From the NCBI GenBank assembly GCA_943349725.1, contig CALQZP010000003.1, positions 1 to 42,899 of the forward strand: a stretch of 42,899 bases of DNA. Direction: 5' to 3'. Below are positions 18,517 through 42,796 of the stretch, in pieces. Source of the stretch: Candidatus Nomurabacteria bacterium. GTDB lineage: Bacteria > Patescibacteriota > Minisyncoccia > Phycocordibacterales > UBA10002. Every line of letters starts with the position of its first letter. The stretch's first letter is position 1. A model generated the notes under the pieces. The model had not been told where the DNA came from. It made no database searches and saw only the letters and a program-made list of their open reading frames with translations. A program made the position numbers and the translations under genes.

Positions 18517-18636
18517 AATCAAGTACCAATCTACTAATCTGTACCAATCTGCAAATACCAACGAATAAGAACCCGATCTATCTGATTAGCAGGTATTCGT
18601 AGATTGGTCTTCATTCGCTGATTGGTATTTTATTAG
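18517..18636. repeat. Degenerate tandem/inverted repeat overlapping the hisS 3' end
   Basis: 18586-18636 matches 23256-23306 at 43 of 51 nt (manual alignment). Confidence 0.8.
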
Positions 18637-22039: not shown

Positions 22040-22081
22040 TTTTTGTATTTTTCCCGCATAATGCTATACTTTCGGCCATCT

Positions 22082-23209
22082 ATGATACGGCTGGGACTTA
22101 CCTTTGATGACGTACTCCTTGAACCGCGGAGGACCGCGGTGAATCGTCGTGATGCGAATGTCGAAACGCGCCTTTCTAAAAAGGCGCGTCTTGCTATCCC
22201 GCTTCTCTCGGCGGCGTCCGACACGGTCTCGGATGCGCGGTTTGCGATAGCACTGGGGAAGCTCGGCGGGATGGCGGTGCTCCACCGCAACTGCAGTTTG
22301 GAAGAGCAGGTGAAGATGGTACAGGAAGTGAAGGCGTCGGGAGTGCTGGTGGGTGCGGCGGTGGGACCGCTTGATGTGGCGAGGGCGGTCGCGCTTGCGG
22401 AGGCGGGAGCGGAGGTAATTTTCATTGACTGTGCGCACGCGCACGCGCCGGGGATTATTGCGTCGGCGAGGGAGATGAAGAAAAGATTTAAATCCCTCCC
22501 GCTGAATACAGCGAGTGCTCCCTTTAACAAGGGGAGAATAAGTCCCCAGCTGGTGGTGGGAAATATCGTGACGAAAGAGGCGGCGAAAGACTTTGCAGGT
22601 ATCGCGGATGCACTGAAGGTTGGCATCGGCCCCGGCTCTATCTGCACGACAAGAATTGTAAGCGGTGTCGGCGTGCCTCAGCTCACGGCAGTTATGGATG
22701 TGGTCTCGGTCGCGAAAAAATATGGCATTCCGGTTATTGCGGACGGCGGTATTCGTTATTCGGGAGACATTGTGAAGGCACTTTCTGCTGGAGCATCTTC
22801 GGTGATGCTTGGCTCGCTTTTTGCGGGAGCAGAGGAAGCGCCCGGGGAAGTGATTGCGATTAACGGAGTGAAGTACAAATCGTACCGAGGAATGGGAAGC
22901 AAAGAAGCGCTGGAGAAGAGGCATGCCACAGATAGATACTCCGCGCAGACAAAAGAGAACACCACCACCCCGGCCTCCGGCCACCCCTCCTCACCTAAGG
23001 AGGGGAAACTCCATGTGGTGGAGGGGGTGGCGGGGAAGGTTCCGTATCGTGGAACCGTGGCGGATATTGTGGAACAGCTCGTCGGTGGTATCAAATCGGG
23101 AATGGGATATATTGGCGCGAAAACCGTAGAAGAGATGCCGAAGCAGGCGCGGTTTATACAGATAACGAATGCTGGGCTGAAGGAGTCACATCCGCATTCA
23201 CTGTCGTGA
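22082..23209 (+). CDS. guaB: IMP dehydrogenase (no CBS pair) with two repeat-derived insertions
   Basis: LTFDDVLL, catalytic [26 protein letters not shown]. Confidence 0.97.
22490..22542 (+). repeat. In-frame palindromic insertion 1 in guaB
   Basis: AAATCCCTCC-CGCTG/CAGCG hairpin-CTCCCTTT-AAC-AAGGGGAG-AATAAG; encodes [18 protein letters not shown]. Confidence 0.7.
22958..23006 (+). repeat. In-frame palindromic insertion 2 in guaB (flap region)
   Basis: ACACCACCACCCCGGCCTCCGGCCA-CCCCTCCT-N6-AGGAGGGG; homologous to 771-816. Confidence 0.85.
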
Positions 23210-23212
23210 GAA

Positions 23213-23306
23213 AAACCAATCTGCGAATACCTGCGAATAAGAAAAGAATTCAGCATTAGTAGGTATTGGTAGATTGGTCGGGATTAGTTGATTGGTATTT
23301 GATTAG
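23213..23306. repeat. Degenerate tandem/inverted repeat between guaB and guaA
   Basis: CCAATCTGCGAATACCTGCGAAT ... ATTAGTAGGTATTGGTAGATTGG. Confidence 0.8.
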
Positions 23307-23307
23307 T

Positions 23308-24948
23308 ATGGAGCAGAACACACAAACCGACACAATTGCCGTTTTGGATTTTGGCTCACAGTATAGCCACCTTATCGTAAGGAGAATACGAGAGCTCTGC
23401 GTGCATGCCGAGCTTTTGCGTCCTGACACATCCGCGGATAGGCTTGCGGGGTTTGCTGGTGTGGTACTGTCGGGGGGTCCGCAAAACCTGTCAGAGTCTA
23501 CGGCGCTCAAAGCGGACCCGAAGCTGTACACGCTCGGTATTCCGGTGCTTGGAGTCTGTTACGGTCTGCAACTCATCGCGCATCAGCTCGGCGGGAAGGT
23601 TACGGCGGGGAACAAAAGGGAGTATGGACCGGTGCGTGTGGAGCTTTCGGGAAAGTCGGAGTTGTTTAAGGGGTTAAACACCACCGCCCTGACCTCACAA
23701 AAACACCACCACCCCGCCTCCGAAGACGGAGGCACCCCTCCTCAACTGAGGAGGGGAGAAGAGGGGAAAAAGCGGGAAGAACTGACGTGGATGTCACATG
23801 GCGACCAAGTGACAAAGATTCCCAAAGGCTTTAGCGTCACGGGAAAATCGGATGCGTGTCCGATTGTCGCGATTGAAAACGTGGAACAGAAGATTTATGG
23901 CATTCAATTTCATCCGGAGGTAAAACACACGGAGCACGGAACGAAAGTGCTCCAAAACTTTTTGACTATTGTCGGCGCGAAAAAAACCTGGAACCTCGGC
24001 AAGAATTGGATAGAGGCGCAGGTGGAGGATATCAAAACAAAGGTGGGAAGCGGTCGCGCGATCTGCGCGCTTTCGGGCGGAGTGGATTCTACCGTCGCGG
24101 CGTATCTCGTACATCGCGCCATTGGAAAACAGCTTACCTGCATTTATGTCGACACGGGAATGATGAGGCTGGGTGAAACCGAGCAAATCAAGAAGACATT
24201 TTCAAAACTTCCCAAACTGGATTTTAGAGTGGTGGACACGGAGAAAGAGTTTTTGAAGGCATTGCGGGGAGTGACCGAGCCGGAGAAGAAGAGAAAGGTG
24301 ATTGGGGAATTGTTTATTAGGTTGTTTGAAAAAGAATCCAAAAAACTCAAGGGTGTGAATTTTCTCGTGCAAGGGACGCTGTATACCGATGTGATTACCT
24401 CGGGCGTGTCGGTGGGCGGAAAGGCCTCCGTCATTAAGTCGCATCACAACGTCGGCGGACTTCCGAAAGATCTGAAGTTTAAGCTCATAGAACCGCTTCG
24501 CGATTTGTATAAAGACGAAGTGCGCCTTATCGGCAAGGAACTTGGGGTGCCGGAGGCTATCGTGAATCGACAGCCGTTTCCGGGTCCGGGGCTGGCGGTG
24601 CGGATTATCGGCGAGGTGACCAAAGCGAAACTGGATACGCTACGCTTGGCGGACGCGATTTTCCGTGAGGAGCTCATTACTTCGGGAGAAGCAAAAGGTA
24701 TCGCGCAGTACTTTGCGGTACTTCCCGATATTAGGAGTGTCGGGGTGCAGGGTGACGCGCGCACCTACGGACATCCGATAATTCTGCGAGCCGTTACCAC
24801 GATGGACTTTATGACCGCCGACTGGGCTCGCATTTCGACAGACACGCTCGCGAAGGTTTCCGCGCGTATCACGAACGAGGTTGCGGGTATTAATCGGGTG
24901 GCGTACGATATCACCTCAAAGCCACCTGCGACGGTGGAGTGGGAATAA
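23308..24948 (+). CDS. guaA: GMP synthase (glutamine-hydrolysing) with a repeat-derived insertion
   Basis: LDFGSQY, GVCYG, WMSHGD, QFHPEV, SGGVDS, KSHHNVGG, KPPATVEWE. Confidence 0.98.
   Translation: MEQNTQTDTIAVLDFGSQYSHLIVRRIRELCVHAELLRPDTSADRLAGFAGVVLSGGPQNLSESTALKADPKLYTLGIPVLGVCYGLQLIAHQLGGKVTAGNKREYGPVRVELSGKSELFKGLNTTALTSQKHHHPASEDGGTPPQLRRGEEGKKREELTWMSHGDQVTKIPKGFSVTGKSDACPIVAIENVEQKIYGIQFHPEVKHTEHGTKVLQNFLTIVGAKKTWNLGKNWIEAQVEDIKTKVGSGRAICALSGGVDSTVAAYLVHRAIGKQLTCIYVDTGMMRLGETEQIKKTFSKLPKLDFRVVDTEKEFLKALRGVTEPEKKRKVIGELFIRLFEKESKKLKGVNFLVQGTLYTDVITSGVSVGGKASVIKSHHNVGGLPKDLKFKLIEPLRDLYKDEVRLIGKELGVPEAIVNRQPFPGPGLAVRIIGEVTKAKLDTLRLADAIFREELITSGEAKGIAQYFAVLPDIRSVGVQGDARTYGHPIILRAVTTMDFMTADWARISTDTLAKVSARITNEVAGINRVAYDITSKPPATVEWE
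23676..23770 (+). repeat. In-frame, possibly nested palindromic insertion in guaA
   Basis: AAACACCACC occurs twice; GCCTCCG/CGGAGGC and CCCCTCCTC/GAGGAGGGG stems. Confidence 0.85.
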
Positions 24949-25048
24949 AGAGATGGAATATGAACCATGAAGGATGGAATATAAGAAAGAAGTGTGAAAA
25001 GCCCGCAATTGCTACTAACTACTTTCTATTAACTACGTACTAATTATT

Positions 25049-26065
25049 ATGGGCCAAAGAACAAAAACTCCACGAGCAGAACTCCACACACACCTTGGCG
25101 CGGCGGTTGACCCTGTGATTATGTGGACCATCGCGCATCGGCAAGGTATCAGACTTCCCGTCAAAGACTATTGGGATTTTGAAGAGCTCATCACGATGGG
25201 CGCGGATGAAAAGAATAAAGGGGTGGACGATATGGACAAGAAGTACTACCACCTCACCGAGCTTATTCAGTCGTCTCCCGAAGCCATTGAAGAGGCGGTT
25301 CATTCGGTTATCGGAGGAGGATACCGCAAATGTAACTTGGTACTCCAGGAACTTCGCTTCAGCCCGATGAAACGCAACCGCACGGGAGAGCGCGACCTTG
25401 ACTTCATTATGCTCGCGGCGCTGTGGGGAATGCGCAGGGCGATGGTGGAGTATCCGCAGGTGACCGCCGGACTCATCGTTGCGATGGACCGGAGTTTTAC
25501 CCCTGCGCAAAACGCGATTACGATTGAGAAGGCGATTAAGTATGCTTCAGACGGAATTGTTGGCATTGATATTTGTGGACCCGACCGAGATGATTTTTCT
25601 ATGAAAGACCACGCGCCACTTTTCGCCCGCGCGAGGAAGGCGGGACTCGGGCTTACGATACATTCGGGAGAGACAGGCAACCTTGAAGAGCTTCGCTATG
25701 TGGTGCGTCATATTAAGCCCGAGCGAATCGGACACGGAATTGCATGCATACAGGATAAGAAGCTTATGGCCGATATCGTCAAGCAAGGTATTGTGCTTGA
25801 GCTTTGCCCCACGTCAAATCTGCGGAACAGTGTGGTGAAAGATGTGGAGGAGCTCCGCACCATTATCCGCACTCTTATAGACCACAAAGTGCGTTTTACG
25901 ATAAACACCGATGGGCCCGAAATGTATAGAACGAGCGTGCTCAAAGAGGAGGAGTTTCTGCTCGCGAATGATATTATGAGTGAGAAGGAGCTCGCACAGT
26001 GCACGAAGTGGGCGTTTGAAGCAACTTTTATAAAGACGAAGGATGGTAAGAAGGTTAGAAAATAA
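25049..26065 (+). CDS. add: Adenosine/AMP deaminase family protein
   Basis: ELHTHLG, HSGE, RIGHG, ELCPTSN, NTDGP. Confidence 0.88.
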   Translation: MGQRTKTPRAELHTHLGAAVDPVIMWTIAHRQGIRLPVKDYWDFEELITMGADEKNKGVDDMDKKYYHLTELIQSSPEAIEEAVHSVIGGGYRKCNLVLQELRFSPMKRNRTGERDLDFIMLAALWGMRRAMVEYPQVTAGLIVAMDRSFTPAQNAITIEKAIKYASDGIVGIDICGPDRDDFSMKDHAPLFARARKAGLGLTIHSGETGNLEELRYVVRHIKPERIGHGIACIQDKKLMADIVKQGIVLELCPTSNLRNSVVKDVEELRTIIRTLIDHKVRFTINTDGPEMYRTSVLKEEEFLLANDIMSEKELAQCTKWAFEATFIKTKDGKKVRK

Positions 26066-26090
26066 TCCACTTAGGTTCAACCTAAGTGGA
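26066..26090. repeat. 25-bp palindrome with AGGTTCAACCT core
   Basis: TCCACTTAGGTT-C-AACCTAAGTGGA. Confidence 0.8.
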
Positions 26091-26097
26091 AATGTAT

Positions 26098-26370
26098 ATG
26101 GAAGAGCGATTTACCAAAATTGAACAGGAGCTTCAGGCGATTGCCGAGCGCAACGCACGGGTAGAAGCCGACAAGTCGTGGGAGACCAGTTTCTTTCGGA
26201 AGTGTACGCTTGCGGTCATGACGTATTTTGTTGCGGTACTTCTTTTATACTTGATTGGAGCGGAACATATTTTCTTGAGCGCGCTCGTACCAGCCGTCGG
26301 ATTTATTCTCTCGGTGCAGACTCTTCCTGCCGTGAAGCTTTGGTGGATTGGCAGATTTCTCAAAAAATAA
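26098..26370 (+). CDS. Small membrane protein of unknown function
   Basis: Coiled N-terminus, RNARVEADKSWETS, two hydrophobic segments; start uncertain (26086, 26092 or 26098). Confidence 0.7.
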   Translation: MEERFTKIEQELQAIAERNARVEADKSWETSFFRKCTLAVMTYFVAVLLLYLIGAEHIFLSALVPAVGFILSVQTLPAVKLWWIGRFLKK

Positions 26371-26921
26371 TGATGAACGGTAAACTTCAATTCGCCTGGA
26401 ACTTTCTCTGTCACCCTGTACGAAACGCCTCACTCATTCCAAGCTCCAGTTTCGCAAGTAAGGCAATGCTTGAGGGCGTTGATTTTTCTACCGTGAAAAC
26501 GGTGGTGGAGCTCGGTCCCGGCACGGGAGTATTTACGGAGGAAATACTGAAGCGATGCACACCCGGTACCAAAATACTTTTGATTGAGCTTGAAAAAGAT
26601 TACGTGACGTTGCTTCAAAAGAAATTCGGTGACCGCGTCATCGTGGAAAGCGCGAGCGCGCACCTTCTGGACGCGATACTCGCGAAGCACGGCGTTACCG
26701 AGGTTAACCTTATCGTTTCAGGACTTCCGTTTTCGCTTCCGCACGAGGTAAAGGAAAAGTTGTTCGCGTCGCTCGCAAAGCACACGTCGCAAGGGGCACA
26801 CTATCGCTTTTTCACCTACAATCCTCCCCTGATGAAGCGTGCGTACGCGAACCTTCCCATACACAAGCTATCGTTCGTACCTTTTAATATTCCGCCAATG
26901 TGGGTATACGGCATCAACTAG
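26370..26921 (+). CDS. Phospholipid N-methyltransferase-like SAM methyltransferase
   Basis: ASLIPSS, VVELGPGTGVFT, IVSGLPF, NIPP. Confidence 0.8.
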   Translation: MMNGKLQFAWNFLCHPVRNASLIPSSSFASKAMLEGVDFSTVKTVVELGPGTGVFTEEILKRCTPGTKILLIELEKDYVTLLQKKFGDRVIVESASAHLLDAILAKHGVTEVNLIVSGLPFSLPHEVKEKLFASLAKHTSQGAHYRFFTYNPPLMKRAYANLPIHKLSFVPFNIPPMWVYGIN

Positions 26922-26922
26922 T

Positions 26923-27501
26923 ATGAGTACCCACGCTTTTTTTGCGATACTTGCGACAACGATTGCACTCGCAAATAAAATCCCCTACATCGCGGATATT
27001 TATCGGCTGAAGACGACTCCGCACAGCTACTCCTGGCTTATCTGGACACTGCTTCAGGGGACCGGCGCGCTCGTTATGCTAAGCGGTGGTGCGGGATTTG
27101 GTGTTGCCTCGCTTCTCGCCGGAACCGTCCTGTGCGCCTTCATCTTTTTGCTTTCGCTTCGTTACGGCACAAAGAACATCACCACGTTTGATACGATCTG
27201 CTTTATCGGAGCACTCATTGCGACAGGAGTTTGGTTCTTTTTGCATGATGCGTTTCTCTCTATTCTGCTCATCTCCGCCATTGATTTTATCGCGTTTCTT
27301 CCCACATTTCGGAAGGCGTACGAAGAGCCATACAGTGAGACGCCCATAATGTATCTCTTTGCCGGTATTGGGGAGGGGTTCGCGCTTCTCGCCCTGACCA
27401 ATATTACCTTTACCACCTCCTTCTATTTGATAACCTTAGTTATTACCAACCCACTTTGCGCGGGTATCATTTGGTTTAGACGAGCGAAGCTTAACAATTA
27501 A
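26923..27501 (+). CDS. Multi-pass membrane protein
   Basis: About 7 hydrophobic segments; internal repeat IPYI...TTPH / LPTF...PYSET. Confidence 0.75.
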   Translation: MSTHAFFAILATTIALANKIPYIADIYRLKTTPHSYSWLIWTLLQGTGALVMLSGGAGFGVASLLAGTVLCAFIFLLSLRYGTKNITTFDTICFIGALIATGVWFFLHDAFLSILLISAIDFIAFLPTFRKAYEEPYSETPIMYLFAGIGEGFALLALTNITFTTSFYLITLVITNPLCAGIIWFRRAKLNN

Positions 27502-27512
27502 ACAATAGTGCT

Positions 27513-27875
27513 ATGCTGATTAAAGACTTAAACAACTGTGAGGAGTTTATCGCTGGCGATAAGACAATACTTCGCGAGTTGTTACACCCCCAAAAAATTA
27601 CGAATGTGGCTTTCCGCTACAGTCTCGCTCACGCGACGGTAAAGGCGGGAGAGAGTTCAACTTCGCACGCGCTCAAGACTTCGGAGGTGTACTATATTCT
27701 GGAAGGGGAGGGAGAAATGCACATTGGTGACGAATCCGCGATGGTACACGCGGGGCAAGCCGTCGTCATTCCGCCGAACGCCAGGCAGTATATTCGTAAT
27801 GTTAGTAGGGGCGCTTTGAAATTTCTTTGCATTGTAGATCCTGCGTGGCGCGTCGAAGATGAAGAAATTATGTAA
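27513..27875 (+). CDS. Cupin domain protein
   Basis: SHALKTSEVYYILEGEG, GQAVVIPP. Confidence 0.9.
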   Translation: MLIKDLNNCEEFIAGDKTILRELLHPQKITNVAFRYSLAHATVKAGESSTSHALKTSEVYYILEGEGEMHIGDESAMVHAGQAVVIPPNARQYIRNVSRGALKFLCIVDPAWRVEDEEIM

Positions 27876-27888
27876 CCGACGGCGTCTG

Positions 27889-27922
27889 TCTATTCGCCAA
27901 TTCGCGCGAATTGGCGAATAGA
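27889..27922. repeat. Perfect 34-bp palindrome
   Basis: TCTATTCGCCAATTCGC|GCGAATTGGCGAATAGA. Confidence 0.9.
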
Positions 27923-27945
27923 TAGGGCGCGGTTATAGGAGAAAT

Positions 27946-29118
27946 ATGCAATCGCGAATAGAGAAAGTAAGGAAAATACTCATTCAGGAGAAAGCGGACG
28001 CGCTTTTGGTGTGGAATGGTGAAGGAAGCGGACAGCCGGCAACAGCATGGTTGTCGGGGTTTTCTGGGACGTCCTCGGCGCTGCTGTTTGCTCGAGAAAA
28101 AATCCTCTCTATGGGCGAGTTCGCCACGAGCTTTAGCCGGCCTCCGGCCACCTCCTTTAGAAAAGGAGGAATAAGAATAAGAGCTTTCTTGATTACCGAT
28201 GGACGGTATACGGCACAGAGCAAAAAAGAAGCAAACGGATTTAAGATTTTCATTACTTCGCGGGAGAGAACCGCGACACAGATTTTGGAATCGCTTTGCA
28301 AACAGTATCATCTGCACAGGATTGTGTTTGATGGAAGTGTCACCTCCTACAGTGCGATCGAAGACATCACGAAAGCAATCTCAGCCGTTAACTTTTTGTC
28401 ACGTAAACGTGTCCTGCAGGAGCTTCGAATGGTCAAAGATACGGAGGAGATACGACTGCTTAAAAAAGCAGGGGATATTACCGTTCGGGCGTTCATGCGA
28501 CTTTTACCCGAGCTATATAGTGGGATGACCGAAAAAGAAATCGCACAGCGTCTTGAAATGCTCTGCATAGAGGAGGGATCGGAGGGTGTGGCATTTCCTA
28601 CGATTGTCGCTTCGGGTAAGAACGGCGCGTTTCCGCACGCGCGGGTAACGGATAAAGAAATTAAGAACGGAGAGCTTGTCACGATTGATTTCGGTGTGCG
28701 GTATAAGGGATATGTTTCGGATATGACCCGCACGGTTGGAATAGGGAAGATAGGGTCACGTCTCAAACGAATGTATGAAGCGGTTCGAAAGGCGCAGGAG
28801 CTCGGGTGCAAGAAGGCAAAGGCGGGAGTAACTGGAGGAAAAATTGATGCCGTGTGTAGAAACTATCTTGAGAAGAAAGGCTTCGGAAAATATTTCACGC
28901 ATTCCACGGGACACGGTATCGGTATTGAGGTGCATGAGCTTCCGCTAGTTTCTTTTCGGCAGAATACAAAGATGCCGGTGGGCGCGGTTATTACCTGTGA
29001 ACCTGGTGTGTATATTCCAAATGTGGGTGGAGCACGTATTGAGGACGCACTGGTGCTTACCAAAAGAGGAAATCTAAAACTGACAGAAGGTATCCCGAAG
29101 GAACTCATTGTACTCTAA
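27946..29118 (+). CDS. Xaa-Pro aminopeptidase (M24B) with a repeat-derived insertion
   Basis: TDGRY, IDFG, SDMTRT, HSTGHGIGIEVHE, EPGVY, RIED. Confidence 0.93.
   Translation: MQSRIEKVRKILIQEKADALLVWNGEGSGQPATAWLSGFSGTSSALLFAREKILSMGEFATSFSRPPATSFRKGGIRIRAFLITDGRYTAQSKKEANGFKIFITSRERTATQILESLCKQYHLHRIVFDGSVTSYSAIEDITKAISAVNFLSRKRVLQELRMVKDTEEIRLLKKAGDITVRAFMRLLPELYSGMTEKEIAQRLEMLCIEEGSEGVAFPTIVASGKNGAFPHARVTDKEIKNGELVTIDFGVRYKGYVSDMTRTVGIGKIGSRLKRMYEAVRKAQELGCKKAKAGVTGGKIDAVCRNYLEKKGFGKYFTHSTGHGIGIEVHELPLVSFRQNTKMPVGAVITCEPGVYIPNVGGARIEDALVLTKRGNLKLTEGIPKELIVL
28097..28175 (+). repeat. In-frame palindromic insertion in the peptidase N-terminal domain
   Basis: Contains CCGGCCTCCGGCCACC, identical to guaB insertion 2, and CCTCCTTT-AGA-AAAGGAGG-AATAAG, like guaB insertion 1. 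Confidence 0.8.
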
Positions 29119-30616: not shown

Positions 30617-30986
30617 GCGGTTTATACCAGACAATCGCTTCGACCTCTGGTCGGAGAGGAAAGTCCGAACACTAACATCTTTGCGCAAGCAAGGACGTAA
30701 AAAGGTAGTGGGTAACGCCCATCCGTCGCAAGACGCGAGATGCGAACAGCAACGCTCAACGCCGAAAGGCTAGAGGTTCCACGCAAGTGGAACGTCCTCA
30801 TCGTAAGGTGAGGCTGAAACGGCTAAATTTCTTACCCGAGTGCAAGGCCGTGTCCTGGCGCAAGCTAGGGAGTGCCGCTTGACCCCGCGAGTAATCGCGG
30901 AGCTAGATAAATGATTGTCCCCCCTACCACTTTGGATAAAACCAAAGTGGTAGGGGGACAGAATTCGGCTTATCGGTATAAATCGC
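30617..30986 (+). ncRNA. rnpB: RNase P RNA
   Basis: GAGGAAAGTCCG, GGGTAACGCCC, TAGATAAATGATTG, ACAGAATTCGGCTTA; P1 ends GCGGTTTATACC/GGTATAAATCGC pair. Confidence 0.95.
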
Positions 30987-30991
30987 GAAAT

Positions 30992-31315: not shown

Positions 31316-33760
31316 ATGTCACTATTTTCTTTTTTGCAAAGGAAGGCTGGGTTAATTCAGGACGAAGCAACCTCGCGAAATACTGACCGAGCTTCCACTT
31401 TTTTCCTTGTTGCGACGGTGTTTCTCTTGCCGATATTTTTTATTCCTTCAATTTCATTTTCGTATATTTTTAGTAAAGCCCTTTTGCTTTCCATGTTGAC
31501 CCTTGTCTCTCTTGTGCTATGGCTCAGTGCGAGACTCCGCGACGGTAAGTTTATTGTCCCAAGTTCCCCGATGCTCCTCGCCATGGCCATCTTCGTCGGT
31601 CTTTTTGCACTTTCTAGTCTCTTCTCAAGGGATGCCACTTTTTCGTTTTTTGGACAAGGTCTTGAAGTTGGCACGGCCGTGAACCTTCTTGTGGTCTTCG
31701 CGCTTGCGTTCCTCGTTTCAGTGGTGTTCCGCACGGGTGAGCAAATTGTAAAAGGCTATATCGCGTTTTTCGCCTCTTTCGCGCTCATTGCGTTATTTCA
31801 CATTTTGCGACTTGTGTTTGGTCCAGATTTTCTTGCATTCGGCATCTTCACCGATACCGTTTCAAATACGGTAGGTCGGTTAAACGATCTCGGTATTTTC
31901 TTTGGAGTCTCGGCGCTTCTTTCGCTCCTCACGATTGAACTTATACCGCTTACACGAGTATTTAAGGTTATTCTTTCGCTCGCACTTCTCACCTCTCTCT
32001 TTTTTCTTTCACTGGTCAATTTCAGTTTACTCTGGTTTGTGCTGGGTCTGTGTTCGCTTGTCCTACTCGTTTTTCTCCTTTCCTTTGGTCGAGCGCTCGC
32101 AAGACGAGGTGCGGAAGACGATATTCTTTTTAAGGAGCCACGTTCTGTTCGGAAGATTCCGTTAGCTTCGTTTGCGGTATTGCTTATTTCCGTGGTCTTT
32201 ATCTTGCCGGGAAGCACCATTGGTGAAAGGGTGGGAAACGTCTTCACTTTTTCTCAAAATGATCCACGTCTGTCTTGGGGCGCCACGATGGAAGTCGTCA
32301 AGGAGACGCTTCAAGTCAGTCCGCTCCTTGGGTCCGGACCCAATAAATTTGGTTCGGAGTGGTTGAAGTACAAACCTAAAGACATCAATATGACAGTATT
32401 TTGGAATACCGACTTTACCTACGGGGTGGGTCTTGTGCCGACTTTTGTGGTCACCTCGGGTATTTTGGGAGGGCTTGCCTGGCTTATATTTTTCCTGCTA
32501 TTTCTTCTTTCAGGATTTCGAGTGGTACTGTCCGATATTTCTGATATCCTATCGCGATACCTCCTCACCTCCTCGTTCCTTGTCGCGCTGTTTCTCTGGG
32601 TTTTTTCCATCTTCTATGTTCCGTCGCTCACCATTTTCAGCCTTACCTTTATCTTTACAGGACTGTTTATTGCGTCACTTTCCGCTTCGCGTATGCTCGA
32701 GGTTAAGACCATTTCGTTTGCAAGCAATCCTCGGGTCGGTTTTGTCTCGATACTCATGCTTATTTTGCTTCTCATTGGAAGTGTCACGCTCGGGTATGTA
32801 CTTACGCAGAAGTATGTCGCCTCTATCTTCTTTCAGAAGGGAATTGTCAGCTTCAACATAGCGGACAACCTAGATCTGACTGAGAAGCAAATTGTGAAGG
32901 CAACAACCCTTAATCCCCTGGACATGTACTATCGCTTTCTCACCGAGCTCACGCTTATACGTATGAACAAACTCTTGAGTCAAAATGACCCAAAGATGTC
33001 TGTCGAAGCGGTGCGTAGTGCATTTCAAACACTGCTCACCACTGCCCTTGCGAACGCACGACAAGCGGTCGCGCTGGGTAAAGCGAACTATGAAAATCAG
33101 ATGACCCTCGGCCGTGTCTTTGAGGCTGTCGTACCGCTCAAGATTGACGGAGCCTATGAAAATGCAAAGGACGCATACACCGAGGCCATGAAATTGAATC
33201 CAAGGAATCCCTCGATTCTCCTCACCATCGCCCGTCTTGAGGTCACCAAGGGTGACAATGCGAAGGCGCGAGAAAACATAAACCAAGCACTGAAAGAAAA
33301 AGCGAACTACACCGAGGCGGTGTTTCTTCTTTCGCAGATAGAGGCGCAGGAGGGTAACATTAAAGAGGCTATCGCTTCAGCCGAGTCGGCGGCAACATTT
33401 TCTCCCGACGACCCGACGGTGCTCTTCCAGCTAGGACTCCTCCGTTTTAACGACAAAAATTATACGGGGGCAATAACCGCGCTCGAGAAGTCGGTTACAC
33501 GTAGTCCAACTTACGCGAACGCGAAGTATTTCCTCGGACTTTCCTACGCGAAGTTGAACCGAATTGCCGATGCTACTGCCCTGTTTCTGGACCTTCAGAC
33601 AAATAATCCCGACAACAAAGATATAGAACAAATCCTAAAGAACTTGAAAGCCGGAAAAGACCCGTTTTATGCCACGCCTCCTCCAACCGCGACTTCCGGA
33701 AAGGGCCTTAAGCTTCCTGTAGAGGAAAAGGCGGTTAAAACTTCAAAGGTCGGAGCATGA
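31316..33760 (+). CDS. O-antigen-ligase-like multi-pass membrane protein with C-terminal TPR repeats
   Basis: More than 10 TM segments, PLLGSGP motif, GILGGLAW; TPR-like A..LNP repeats. Confidence 0.75.
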   Translation: MSLFSFLQRKAGLIQDEATSRNTDRASTFFLVATVFLLPIFFIPSISFSYIFSKALLLSMLTLVSLVLWLSARLRDGKFIVPSSPMLLAMAIFVGLFALSSLFSRDATFSFFGQGLEVGTAVNLLVVFALAFLVSVVFRTGEQIVKGYIAFFASFALIALFHILRLVFGPDFLAFGIFTDTVSNTVGRLNDLGIFFGVSALLSLLTIELIPLTRVFKVILSLALLTSLFFLSLVNFSLLWFVLGLCSLVLLVFLLSFGRALARRGAEDDILFKEPRSVRKIPLASFAVLLISVVFILPGSTIGERVGNVFTFSQNDPRLSWGATMEVVKETLQVSPLLGSGPNKFGSEWLKYKPKDINMTVFWNTDFTYGVGLVPTFVVTSGILGGLAWLIFFLLFLLSGFRVVLSDISDILSRYLLTSSFLVALFLWVFSIFYVPSLTIFSLTFIFTGLFIASLSASRMLEVKTISFASNPRVGFVSILMLILLLIGSVTLGYVLTQKYVASIFFQKGIVSFNIADNLDLTEKQIVKATTLNPLDMYYRFLTELTLIRMNKLLSQNDPKMSVEAVRSAFQTLLTTALANARQAVALGKANYENQMTLGRVFEAVVPLKIDGAYENAKDAYTEAMKLNPRNPSILLTIARLEVTKGDNAKARENINQALKEKANYTEAVFLLSQIEAQEGNIKEAIASAESAATFSPDDPTVLFQLGLLRFNDKNYTGAITALEKSVTRSPTYANAKYFLGLSYAKLNRIADATALFLDLQTNNPDNKDIEQILKNLKAGKDPFYATPPPTATSGKGLKLPVEEKAVKTSKVGA

Positions 33761-35478: not shown

Positions 35479-35540
35479 GTGCTGGATTCGACAGGCTCAC
35501 CACCCCGAGGAATTTGTGGGGTAGCTTTTAGGGATTAAGA

Positions 35541-35572
35541 AAAAACCGCCCCGATTTTCATCGAGGCGGTTT
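35541..35572. terminator. Terminator between convergent murJ and pheA
   Basis: AAACCGCCCCGAT-TTTC-ATCGAGGCGGTTT; near-copy at 42763-42796. Confidence 0.75.
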
Positions 35573-35598
35573 GCGTGTTTACAAGTACAACGCCCTCT

Positions 35599-40323: not shown

Positions 40324-40394
40324 TGCGGGTAGCGGGAATCGAATCCGCGTCTCATGCTTGGGAAGCACGCATATTGCCACTATACTATACCCGC
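40324..40394 (-). tRNA. tRNA-Gly(CCC)
   Basis: Cloverleaf GCGGGTA...TACCCGC-A; anticodon loop TTCCCAA; no encoded CCA. Confidence 0.9.
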
Positions 40395-41698: not shown

Positions 41699-41770
41699 GC
41701 CCCCGTAGTTCAACGGATAGAACGAACCGTTCCTAATGGTTTGATGTCAGTTCAATTCTGGCCGGGGGCA
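41699..41770 (+). tRNA. tRNA-Arg(CCT)
   Basis: GCCCCCG acceptor stem; anticodon arm AACCG-TTCCTAA-TGGTT; T loop TTCAATT. Confidence 0.92.
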
Positions 41771-42680: not shown

Positions 42681-42756
42681 GCCGAGATAGCTCAGTTGGT
42701 AGAGCATTCCCCTGAAGAGGGAAGGGTCCCCAGTTCGAATCTGGGTCTCGGCACCA
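42681..42756 (+). tRNA. tRNA-Phe(GAA)
   Basis: Canonical 76 nt; anticodon arm TTCCC-CTGAAGA-GGGAA; encoded CCA. Confidence 0.97.
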
Positions 42757-42762
42757 AAACAG

Positions 42763-42796
42763 AAACCGCCCCGACTTTCGTCGGGGCGGTTTTTTT
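42763..42796. terminator. Terminator after tRNA-Phe
   Basis: AAACCGCCCCGAC-TTTC-GTCGGGGCGGTTTTTTT. Confidence 0.85.

Follow-up and report, generated by a model that had tools for sequence, protein, structure and literature searches.

The occurrence of one short palindromic repeat both between genes and inside three housekeeping genes of a 42,899-nt stretch of bacterial DNA (contig CALQZP010000003.1 of a Candidatus Nomurabacteria assembly, here called the window) poses two questions, namely whether the repeats were inserted into these genes and, if so, what moves them. We find that the five window copies are one family of short mobile DNA repeats, that the four coding copies are true in-frame insertions relative to empty sites in other species of the genus, and that both full-length DUF559 nuclease genes of the same genome lie exactly between inverted half-elements of this family, an arrangement of which our literature searches returned no description. 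The reading that we consider probable is that of a selfish nuclease-plus-repeat element whose short derivatives persist within genes as extra loops.

The window is contig 3 of a genome (G000) of 919,872 bases in 66 contigs with 48% G+C, which belongs to an ultra-small Parcubacteria-type lake bacterium with a genome of 0.92 Mb; the nearest named guaA loci are those of Parcubacteria and 'Candidatus Taylorbacteria' metagenome bins. Genes of G000 were counted with a crude self-trained caller (840 genes, 80% of bases), and the comparison set consisted of 20 other genomes of the same genus, called congeners below and labelled G002, G008 and so on, with G008 being the sister genome.

Repeat copies in the window

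The repeat copies and the genes that hold them, all on the + strand, are the following.

770-816, +, type A half-element, intergenic, with a CACCACC-type tail, a short hairpin and the CCCCTCCTC/GAGGAGGGG hairpin (nhmmer E=6.3e-11; DNA fold z=-4.2)
22043-23209, +, guaB (IMP dehydrogenase) open reading frame (ORF), likely start ATG 22082, PF00478 end to end (404 bits)
22488-22542, +, type B1 half-element in guaB, before QLVVGN, net +51 nt or 17 codons (nhmmer E=3.1e-10)
22958-23008, +, type A half-element in the guaB flap, after the DRY motif, net +54 nt or 18 codons (nhmmer E=1.4e-10)
23266-24948, +, guaA (GMP synthase) ORF, likely start ATG 23308, Pfam GATase and GMP_synt_C
23677-23775, +, guaA insert block between LFKGL and EELTWMSHGD, 99 nt, net +93 (nhmmer E=2.3e-12; DNA fold z=-5.9)
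27946-29118, +, Xaa-Pro/M24 peptidase gene, Pfam Peptidase_M24 and Creatinase_N
28097-28181, +, type B2 half-element in the peptidase gene, before FLITDGRY, net +81 nt (nhmmer E=3.5e-5 for the 3' part; DNA fold z=-3.1)

The CCCCTCCTC/GAGGAGGGG hairpin is part of a 26-nt core that is found, with 85-96% identity, at 790-815, 22980-23005 and 23731-23756, and a strict pattern for this hairpin gave two matches in the window against none in 100 shuffles. The original prediction, which was made from the letters of the window alone, had located all five copies correctly and had rightly noted that the type A copies of guaB and guaA are read in different frames, as is seen in both the translations and the DNA, and that all four coding copies are stop-free and in sense orientation. 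The 16-nt string that it had pointed out as common to the guaB flap and the peptidase copy is exact (22970-22985 and 28137-28152), occurs nowhere else and has an expected count of 0. With regard to the extents of the inserts, those in guaB amount to 17 and 18 codons, the guaA block proved to be larger than had been predicted, and the peptidase block runs on to about 28181. The guaA block is composed of a partial second tail (23677-23701) followed by a full type A half-element (23702-23760), and the peptidase copy carries an extra hairpin in its middle region in comparison with the same-site copy of the sister genome. As single-stranded DNA each of the five window copies folds into two adjacent hairpins, with z scores from -3.1 to -5.9.

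Coding copies as insertions

The three window genes were taken from the 20 congeners and aligned, giving 10 comparable genes for guaB (75-86% identity), 11 for guaA, of which orthologues were found in 12 of the 20 congeners, and 10 for the peptidase. Occupied and empty alleles were found at each of the four sites.

guaB site before QLVVGN: G000 +51 nt, occupied in 6/10, empty in 4/10
guaB flap site: G000 +54 nt, related elements in 3/10, an unrelated AT-rich insert of 36 nt in 1/10, empty in 6/10
guaA site: 99 nt in G000 versus 6 nt in empty alleles, occupied in 4/11 by other subtypes, empty in 7/11
Peptidase site: G000 +81 nt, occupied in 4 congeners and both G000 paralogues (+48 to +81 nt), empty (54 nt) in 5/10

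Complete lengths were measured for 20 inserts across species; each is a multiple of three and stop-free, and they range from +45 to +111, with the unrelated insert of +36 in addition. The proposal that the coding copies are in-frame insertions is thus borne out by empty congener sites at all four places and by lengths in threes. In the alignments of guaB, guaA and the peptidase, one and the same site holds different subtypes in different species, and further insert sites are present in other species, two each in guaA and the peptidase. The only well-supported pair in the guaA tree is that of G000 and G008 (95/99), the remaining branches being mostly poorly resolved; as the guaA site is empty in G008, whose GuaA protein is 92% identical, and occupied in G000, at least two events are forced. 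GuaA genes in other lineages measure about 1515-1548 nt versus 1680 nt in G000. The AAT(A/T)AAG end seen at these sites may be part of either the element or its target.

The unrelated insert in the guaB flap belongs to the sister genome (locus L002, about 2330-2370), where 36 nt of AT-rich sequence, with three tandem 7-nt units within it, are inserted in frame in place of the GC-rich element. G000 itself has a second M24 peptidase gene (C58:2326-3564), 63% identical to that of the window and with repeat inserts at three sites, the first of which is shared with the window gene and holds a different subtype; this may be a paralogous gene, or else one from a co-binned strain, contamination being estimated at 3.2%.

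The inserts are not an assembly artefact, the concern that the original prediction had itself attached to them. Logan contigs from a second sample of the same study reproduced positions 22300-22993 and 22964-23284 without difference, as did those from a possible source run for 23268-24000. In another study a relative of roughly 90% likeness has the guaB site-1 insert, and at the guaA insert of this relative 152 nt are skipped with 56 other letters between, a shortening by about 96 nt. Among the runs listed for the region none is an RNA run; a single one that is guessed to be RNA covers only 23819-23964 at about 92% likeness. The Logan contigs end at the repeat cores, as is to be expected because these sequences are repeats.

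Architecture of the half-elements

Types A and B, which had been described from the window as sister forms, are indeed related in that both are half-elements of about 50 nt built on one plan, with a tail (CACCACC-type in A and AAATCC-type in B), a middle hairpin and a terminal hairpin. The conserved part is the terminal hairpin, which has one pyrimidine arm and one purine arm, and the middle hairpin varies by compensating changes between copies. Perfect middle stems of at least 4 bp were present in 26 of 41 B copies versus 121 of 820 shuffles, with 18 distinct stems and the loop AAGA in 13 copies. If A is accepted in place of T, the tail mirrors the pyrimidine arm, and tail and terminal hairpin differ in step across types A, B1 and B2 and a fourth type found in relatives. 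An upstream mirror match (at most one mismatch) was obtained in 108 of 182 strand-wise tests versus 632 of 3640 shuffled flanks, in a test that scores each hairpin on both strands although the tail is present on one side only. The half-element is accordingly laid out as three blocks that are predicted to be capable of forming an intrastrand triplex. G000 further contains 22 doublets in which two half-elements, mostly B2 with B1, are inverted tail to tail over about 100-115 nt, and the centres of these doublets are uniform.

DUF559 genes between inverted half-elements

A search of G000 for inverted half-elements with something between them led to a 160-aa ORF on contig C9 that matches DUF559 (PF04480, 123 bits; curated cut-off 20.6), a family which we take to be Vsr-like PD-(D/E)XK nucleases. 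The closest solved chain to the cassette protein is 3hrl_A, 'Endonuclease-Like Protein' (E=1.6e-10). Searching G000 with PF04480 gave three matches, two of them full-length (124 and 94 bits), and each of these two is enclosed by inverted copies of one type.

C9, 2983-3303: DUF559 cassette between A copies at 2930-2982 (-) and 3380-3437 (+)
C2, 32888-33202: DUF559 cassette between B copies at 32839-32889 (-) and 33226-33281 (+)

The original prediction had suggested looking for a partner nuclease between copies of the repeat, and DUF559 is a candidate for it. The two proteins are 39% identical, and in the C2 cassette the start codon comes directly after the centre motif of the left half and the ORF ends inside the right half. 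The spacer that holds the C2 cassette is 488 nt long in G000 versus 97-258 nt in G008, G001, G003, G010, G017 and G009, all of which have conserved flanks and no cassette, and in G002 it holds a decayed cassette of another subtype; by the evidence of these spacers, the C2 cassette is itself an insertion. The third match (C31) covers profile positions 48-108 only, within an ORF of about 260 aa, and was left uncounted as probably a different gene; partial matches like it occur in ORFs of about 250-290 aa in six congeners.

DUF559 matches were found in 16 of the 21 genomes of the genus. Among the 27 full-length loci, a pyrimidine/purine hairpin (stem of at least 8, no more than one mismatch, up to 200 nt upstream or 120 nt downstream of the gene) lies on both sides in 11, on one side in 12 and on neither in 4, in comparison with 0 on both sides and 16 on one side for 300 random G000 windows. 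The cassettes of G014, G017 and G002 have B1 upstream and B2 downstream, which is the same make-up as that of the gene-less doublets of G000. One nuclease domain (G006:C3:16234-16545, locus L197; full DUF559 domain, 118 bits) lies within an open frame of 930 aa and has a very long branch in the nuclease tree; here the cassette may sit whole and in frame inside a large protein.

Other candidate partners were tried and rejected. The sole Y1 (IS200-like) gene of G000, on C13 (239 aa, PF01797, 28 bits), has on either side a different hairpin of its own, which speaks against a RAYT/IS200 partner for the A and B repeats. Y1 genes are present in 19 of the 21 genomes, and A/B copies occurred at about 8 places in 25 Y1 loci (about 80 kb), roughly the genome-wide density. 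TnpB-type PF07282 and DDE_Tnp_1 PF01609 had no match in G000, these being the other transposase families searched for. Pairs of inverted repeats about 2 kb apart on C21 and C29 enclose ordinary genes and no mobility gene, as judged by eye from the translations without a family search.

The hairpin beside the Y1 gene represents a second repeat system, a perfect hairpin of about 24 nt with the arms GTTGAGGT / ACCTCAAC and about 14 copies, of which 7 lie on C13. The Y1 gene is directly flanked by two pairs (C13:6692-7590, locus L132 1183-2100), and other copies are found at C13:3607-3880, C6:2950, C22:1013, C37:2742, C48:365 and C61:4221-4290. Together with its Y1 gene this hairpin looks like an arrangement of the kind formed by repetitive extragenic palindromic (REP) sequences and RAYT transposases, here in a Patescibacteria genome.

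Copy number, host genes and predicted protein effects

The original prediction had looked to a genome-wide count of coding and intergenic copies. Profiles built from regular-expression seeds and run on G000 with nhmmer (E <=0.01) gave 118 non-redundant copies, 29 of type A and 89 of type B, which our home-made gene caller places between genes in 58 cases, inside genes in 44, across a gene end in 13 and within 30 nt of an end in 3. The concentration that had been proposed for the purine region was not upheld, as its four copies in 5.7 kb are exceeded in density by five in 3.2 kb on C2 and five in 3.1 kb on C35. Beyond G000, the B1 hairpin pattern (37-38 loci in G000) was found in 13 of 20 congeners, with 0-67 loci each, and in 1 of 20 other genera of the order, and the A hairpin pattern (21 loci in G000) in 19 of 20 congeners, with 0-30 loci, and in 0 of 20 other genera; a reversed-pattern control gave 0 everywhere among congeners and other genera. 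The family is thus largely limited to one genus and patchy within it.

Pfam domains were matched in 24 of the 25 host ORFs scanned, mostly on both sides of the insert. The host genes fall into the following groups.

DNA handling: UvrA, UvrB, topoisomerase I (TopA), reverse transcriptase
Translation and RNA modification: AlaRS (AlaS), PheRS beta (PheT), Dus, TruB, RsmH, YchF
Envelope and secretion: SecA, Mur ligase (three copies), MurB, three glycosyltransferases, a large surface protein
Other enzymes: alcohol dehydrogenase, PfkB kinase, a thioredoxin-reductase-like protein, a hydrolase
In the window: guaB, guaA, M24 peptidase

UvrA, Dus and PfkB each contain a whole doublet. In the reverse transcriptase host (C48:2077-3147, locus L181 178-1248; RVT_1, 83 bits) the in-frame copy is a half-element of type A.

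Of the coding copies 25 are in sense and 19 in antisense orientation, and they make use of at least four combinations of orientation and frame, all of them open frames of the element. The predicted insert peptides are rich in Pro, Ser, Thr, Gly, Glu and Lys. We infer that the inserts are translated as extra loops because the frames are intact, the lengths are in threes and only open frames are used; the 'new protein loops' of the original prediction are in this sense deduced from intact frames. The proposed mapping onto AlphaFold models was carried out for GuaB. In an AlphaFold2 model made from an input of 10 sequences (mean predicted local distance difference test score, pLDDT, of 70), insert 1 (residues 137-154) forms coil between a helix at 123-138 and a strand at 156-160, with pLDDT <50 at 143-151, and insert 2 (residues 293-309) falls within a low-confidence stretch at 279-317. 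Both guaB inserts are thus modelled as low-confidence coil.

How the repeats may have spread

In the reading that we favour, the full form of the element would be two inverted half-elements around a DUF559 gene, about 0.45-0.5 kb in all, and the gene-less doublets and solo halves, which make up nearly all copies, would be its short derivatives. The nuclease would act on the structured ends and so spread the repeats, copies would land both between and inside genes, and those surviving inside genes would be the ones that keep the frame, are free of stops and occupy tolerant surface loops. A role of DUF559 in moving the repeats is suggested because its gene is associated with half-elements, and the description of the element as 'active' in the original prediction is likewise a deduction, from polymorphism between species rather than from direct sighting. 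A number of points weigh against this reading. PD-(D/E)XK nucleases are not known to transpose DNA unaided. The hairpin is absent at 4 of the 27 DUF559 loci and one-sided at 12, and repeats occur in genomes with no DUF559 match, namely G008, with 10-14 repeat loci, and G015 (82% complete), with B copies. The assignment of copies to genes and spacers depends on a crude caller. Of the two things expected from the orthologue alignments, empty sites were defined and target-site duplications were not, since the flanks in the insertion-site alignments are A/G-rich and have no consistent direct repeat. In favour of the reading, a tree of the 27 nuclease domains groups them by flanking hairpin type, with 11 changes of type (minimum 8, shuffled mean 18.9, 0 of 200 shuffles as low); the types were, however, assigned by eye and labels are shared by related genomes, and this co-clustering of nuclease lineage and repeat type is compatible with a mobiliser and with a homing nuclease alike.

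The latter is the main rival, although we regard it as unlikely. Here the DUF559 gene would be a homing-endonuclease-like parasite of the repeats which cuts the doublet centre and is copied in by repair through half-element homology, with the repeats themselves spread by other means such as a trans-acting enzyme or template switching at hairpins. The precise position of the gene at the doublet centre, with the C2 start codon adjoining the centre motif and the 3' end entering the other half, fits this scheme, as do the uniform doublet centres, the repeats of G008 and G015 without a DUF559 match and the presence of Y1 transposase genes in 19 of 21 genomes. A Y1 enzyme as the source of spread is, however, at odds with the different hairpin family around the only Y1 gene of G000 and with the background frequency of A/B copies near Y1 genes. 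It is very unlikely, in our view, that the repeats serve the host in regulation or structure, for instance as hairpins masking Shine-Dalgarno-like GGAGG, as RNA spacers or as two-way terminators, with the coding copies being accidental. The terminal hairpin does pair a GGAGG/GGGAG purine arm with a CCTCC-like arm, and for 26 of the 74 non-coding or edge copies an ORF of at least 60 aa starts within 40 nt downstream, but 48 of the 74 have no such start, the in-gene copies in both orientations point to a property of the DNA rather than of the RNA, presence varies at orthologous sites and between 0 and 67 copies among congeners, and Rfam gave no match at the repeat copies in the window. A function as portable ribosome-binding sites was rejected on the same figure of only 26 in 74. 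Even less credence can be given to removal of the inserts from the mRNA or to their bypass by the ribosome, for which the stable hairpins are the sole and indirect argument; removed inserts would be unconstrained in length and stops, contrary to the 20 of 20 lengths that are stop-free multiples of three and to the exclusive use of open frames. The view to which we attach almost no weight is that nothing moved, the loops being ancestral and deleted in some species or else artefacts of assembly. The poorly resolved guaA tree, which forces only few events (at least 2), leaves some room for it, but the loops are copies of a dispersed repeat that is also found between genes, different subtypes occupy one site, and the GuaA genes of other lineages are shorter. 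As for artefacts, the second-sample contigs match 22300-22993 exactly, the relative from another study has the guaB site-1 insert and is 96 nt shorter at guaA, and occupied sites are common to independently assembled congeners.

Relation to known repeat systems

Rickettsia palindromic elements (RPEs) are given in PMC10969869, which summarises Ogata et al. (2000, 2002), as about 150 bp long; R. conorii has 44 copies, of which nearly half lie in ORFs. Both are dispersed palindromes that lie in frame in unrelated housekeeping genes and are read through, and neither has a known transposase of its own. RPE families each encode one conserved peptide, whereas the G000 units are about 50 nt (doublets about 105 nt) and are used in both orientations and several frames; they also have a mirror tail and form the ends of a DUF559 cassette, the RPEs having been compared by description only. 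A second likeness is to the triplex motifs BoxC, PIT and TMECO, G/C-rich motifs which Holder et al. 2015 (PMC4666352) describe as a pyrimidine and a purine arm joined by a loop and followed by a second loop and a mirror G-rich block. The three-block layout is shared, read on the other strand in G000, and so are the many copies, their very uneven numbers between close relatives and their ties to variable loci. TMECO in E. coli is, according to that paper, always intergenic and not found with mobile elements, in contrast to the 44 of 118 G000 copies in genes and the repeats flanking a nuclease gene. TMECO has CCCTCNCCC-type 9-nt blocks and a 3-nt second loop, whereas in G000 the block sequences are different and the second loop contains a variable hairpin of about 10-45 nt.

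The REP/REPIN-RAYT systems resemble the G000 family in having short palindromes as singlets and inverted doublets and a low-copy enzyme gene between its own repeats; the enzyme is a DUF559 PD-(D/E)XK nuclease here and a Y1 HUH transposase there, and REPs are extragenic whereas the G000 copies are also found in genes. As in miniature inverted-repeat transposable elements, gene-less derivatives have the inverted ends of a longer gene-carrying element, are present in many copies and are polymorphic between relatives, but no target-site duplication could be made out in G000, the partner gene is not a known transposase and the halves occur alone. A literature search on palindromic elements in Patescibacteria returned no paper, and one on in-frame palindromes in the Candidate Phyla Radiation gave none that by title or abstract describes a system of the G000 type. 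Among the matches listed for DUF559 endonucleases and repeats, no title or abstract links them to dispersed repeats, and a search on intrastrand triplexes, endonucleases and bacterial repeats gave no description of such a system. The Ssn nucleases of PMC11893778 are a GIY-YIG family, not DUF559.

What moves short in-gene palindromes such as the Rickettsia elements has been a question for over twenty years, as has the function of the BoxC/PIT triplex repeats. The G000 family joins features of the coding palindromes with those of the triplex type and has a concrete candidate enzyme adjoining, which makes the question of the mover testable with two small proteins and a few oligonucleotides. It is possible, though we put this forward tentatively, that DUF559 is the missing mobiliser of widespread structure-forming repeats, both the triplex-capable BoxC/PIT type and RPE-like coding palindromes; this would be a new kind of element which recognises end structure, has no transposase and is still writing loops into essential enzymes of ultra-small bacteria. 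If the inserts are translated as we suppose, a genome of less than 1 Mb can tolerate additional loops by the dozen in proteins as essential as SecA, topoisomerase I, tRNA synthetases and purine enzymes, which would bear on the origin of new protein segments and on annotation and structure prediction for uncultured bacteria.

Other features of the window

The Rfam scan of the window matched RNase P RNA and three tRNAs only, the former (class A, 106 bits) at 30619-30988 and the tRNA genes at 40324-40394, 41699-41770 and 42681-42753. A palindrome with 24-nt arms that are 96% complementary lies just upstream of the peptidase start at 27886-27925 and may be an operator or a terminator. Positions 35540-35579 and 42756-42795 hold a pair of hairpins, 90% identical, each with a GC stem and A/T runs beside it; these are terminator-like and could act in both directions. 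The window also has three copies of an intergenic, AT-rich repeat (4472-4561, 18543-18636 and 23212-23306), each about 90 nt long and with short periodic units forming its inverted arms; the last copy fills the spacer between guaB and guaA, where contigs from the sequencing runs link this spot to other loci.

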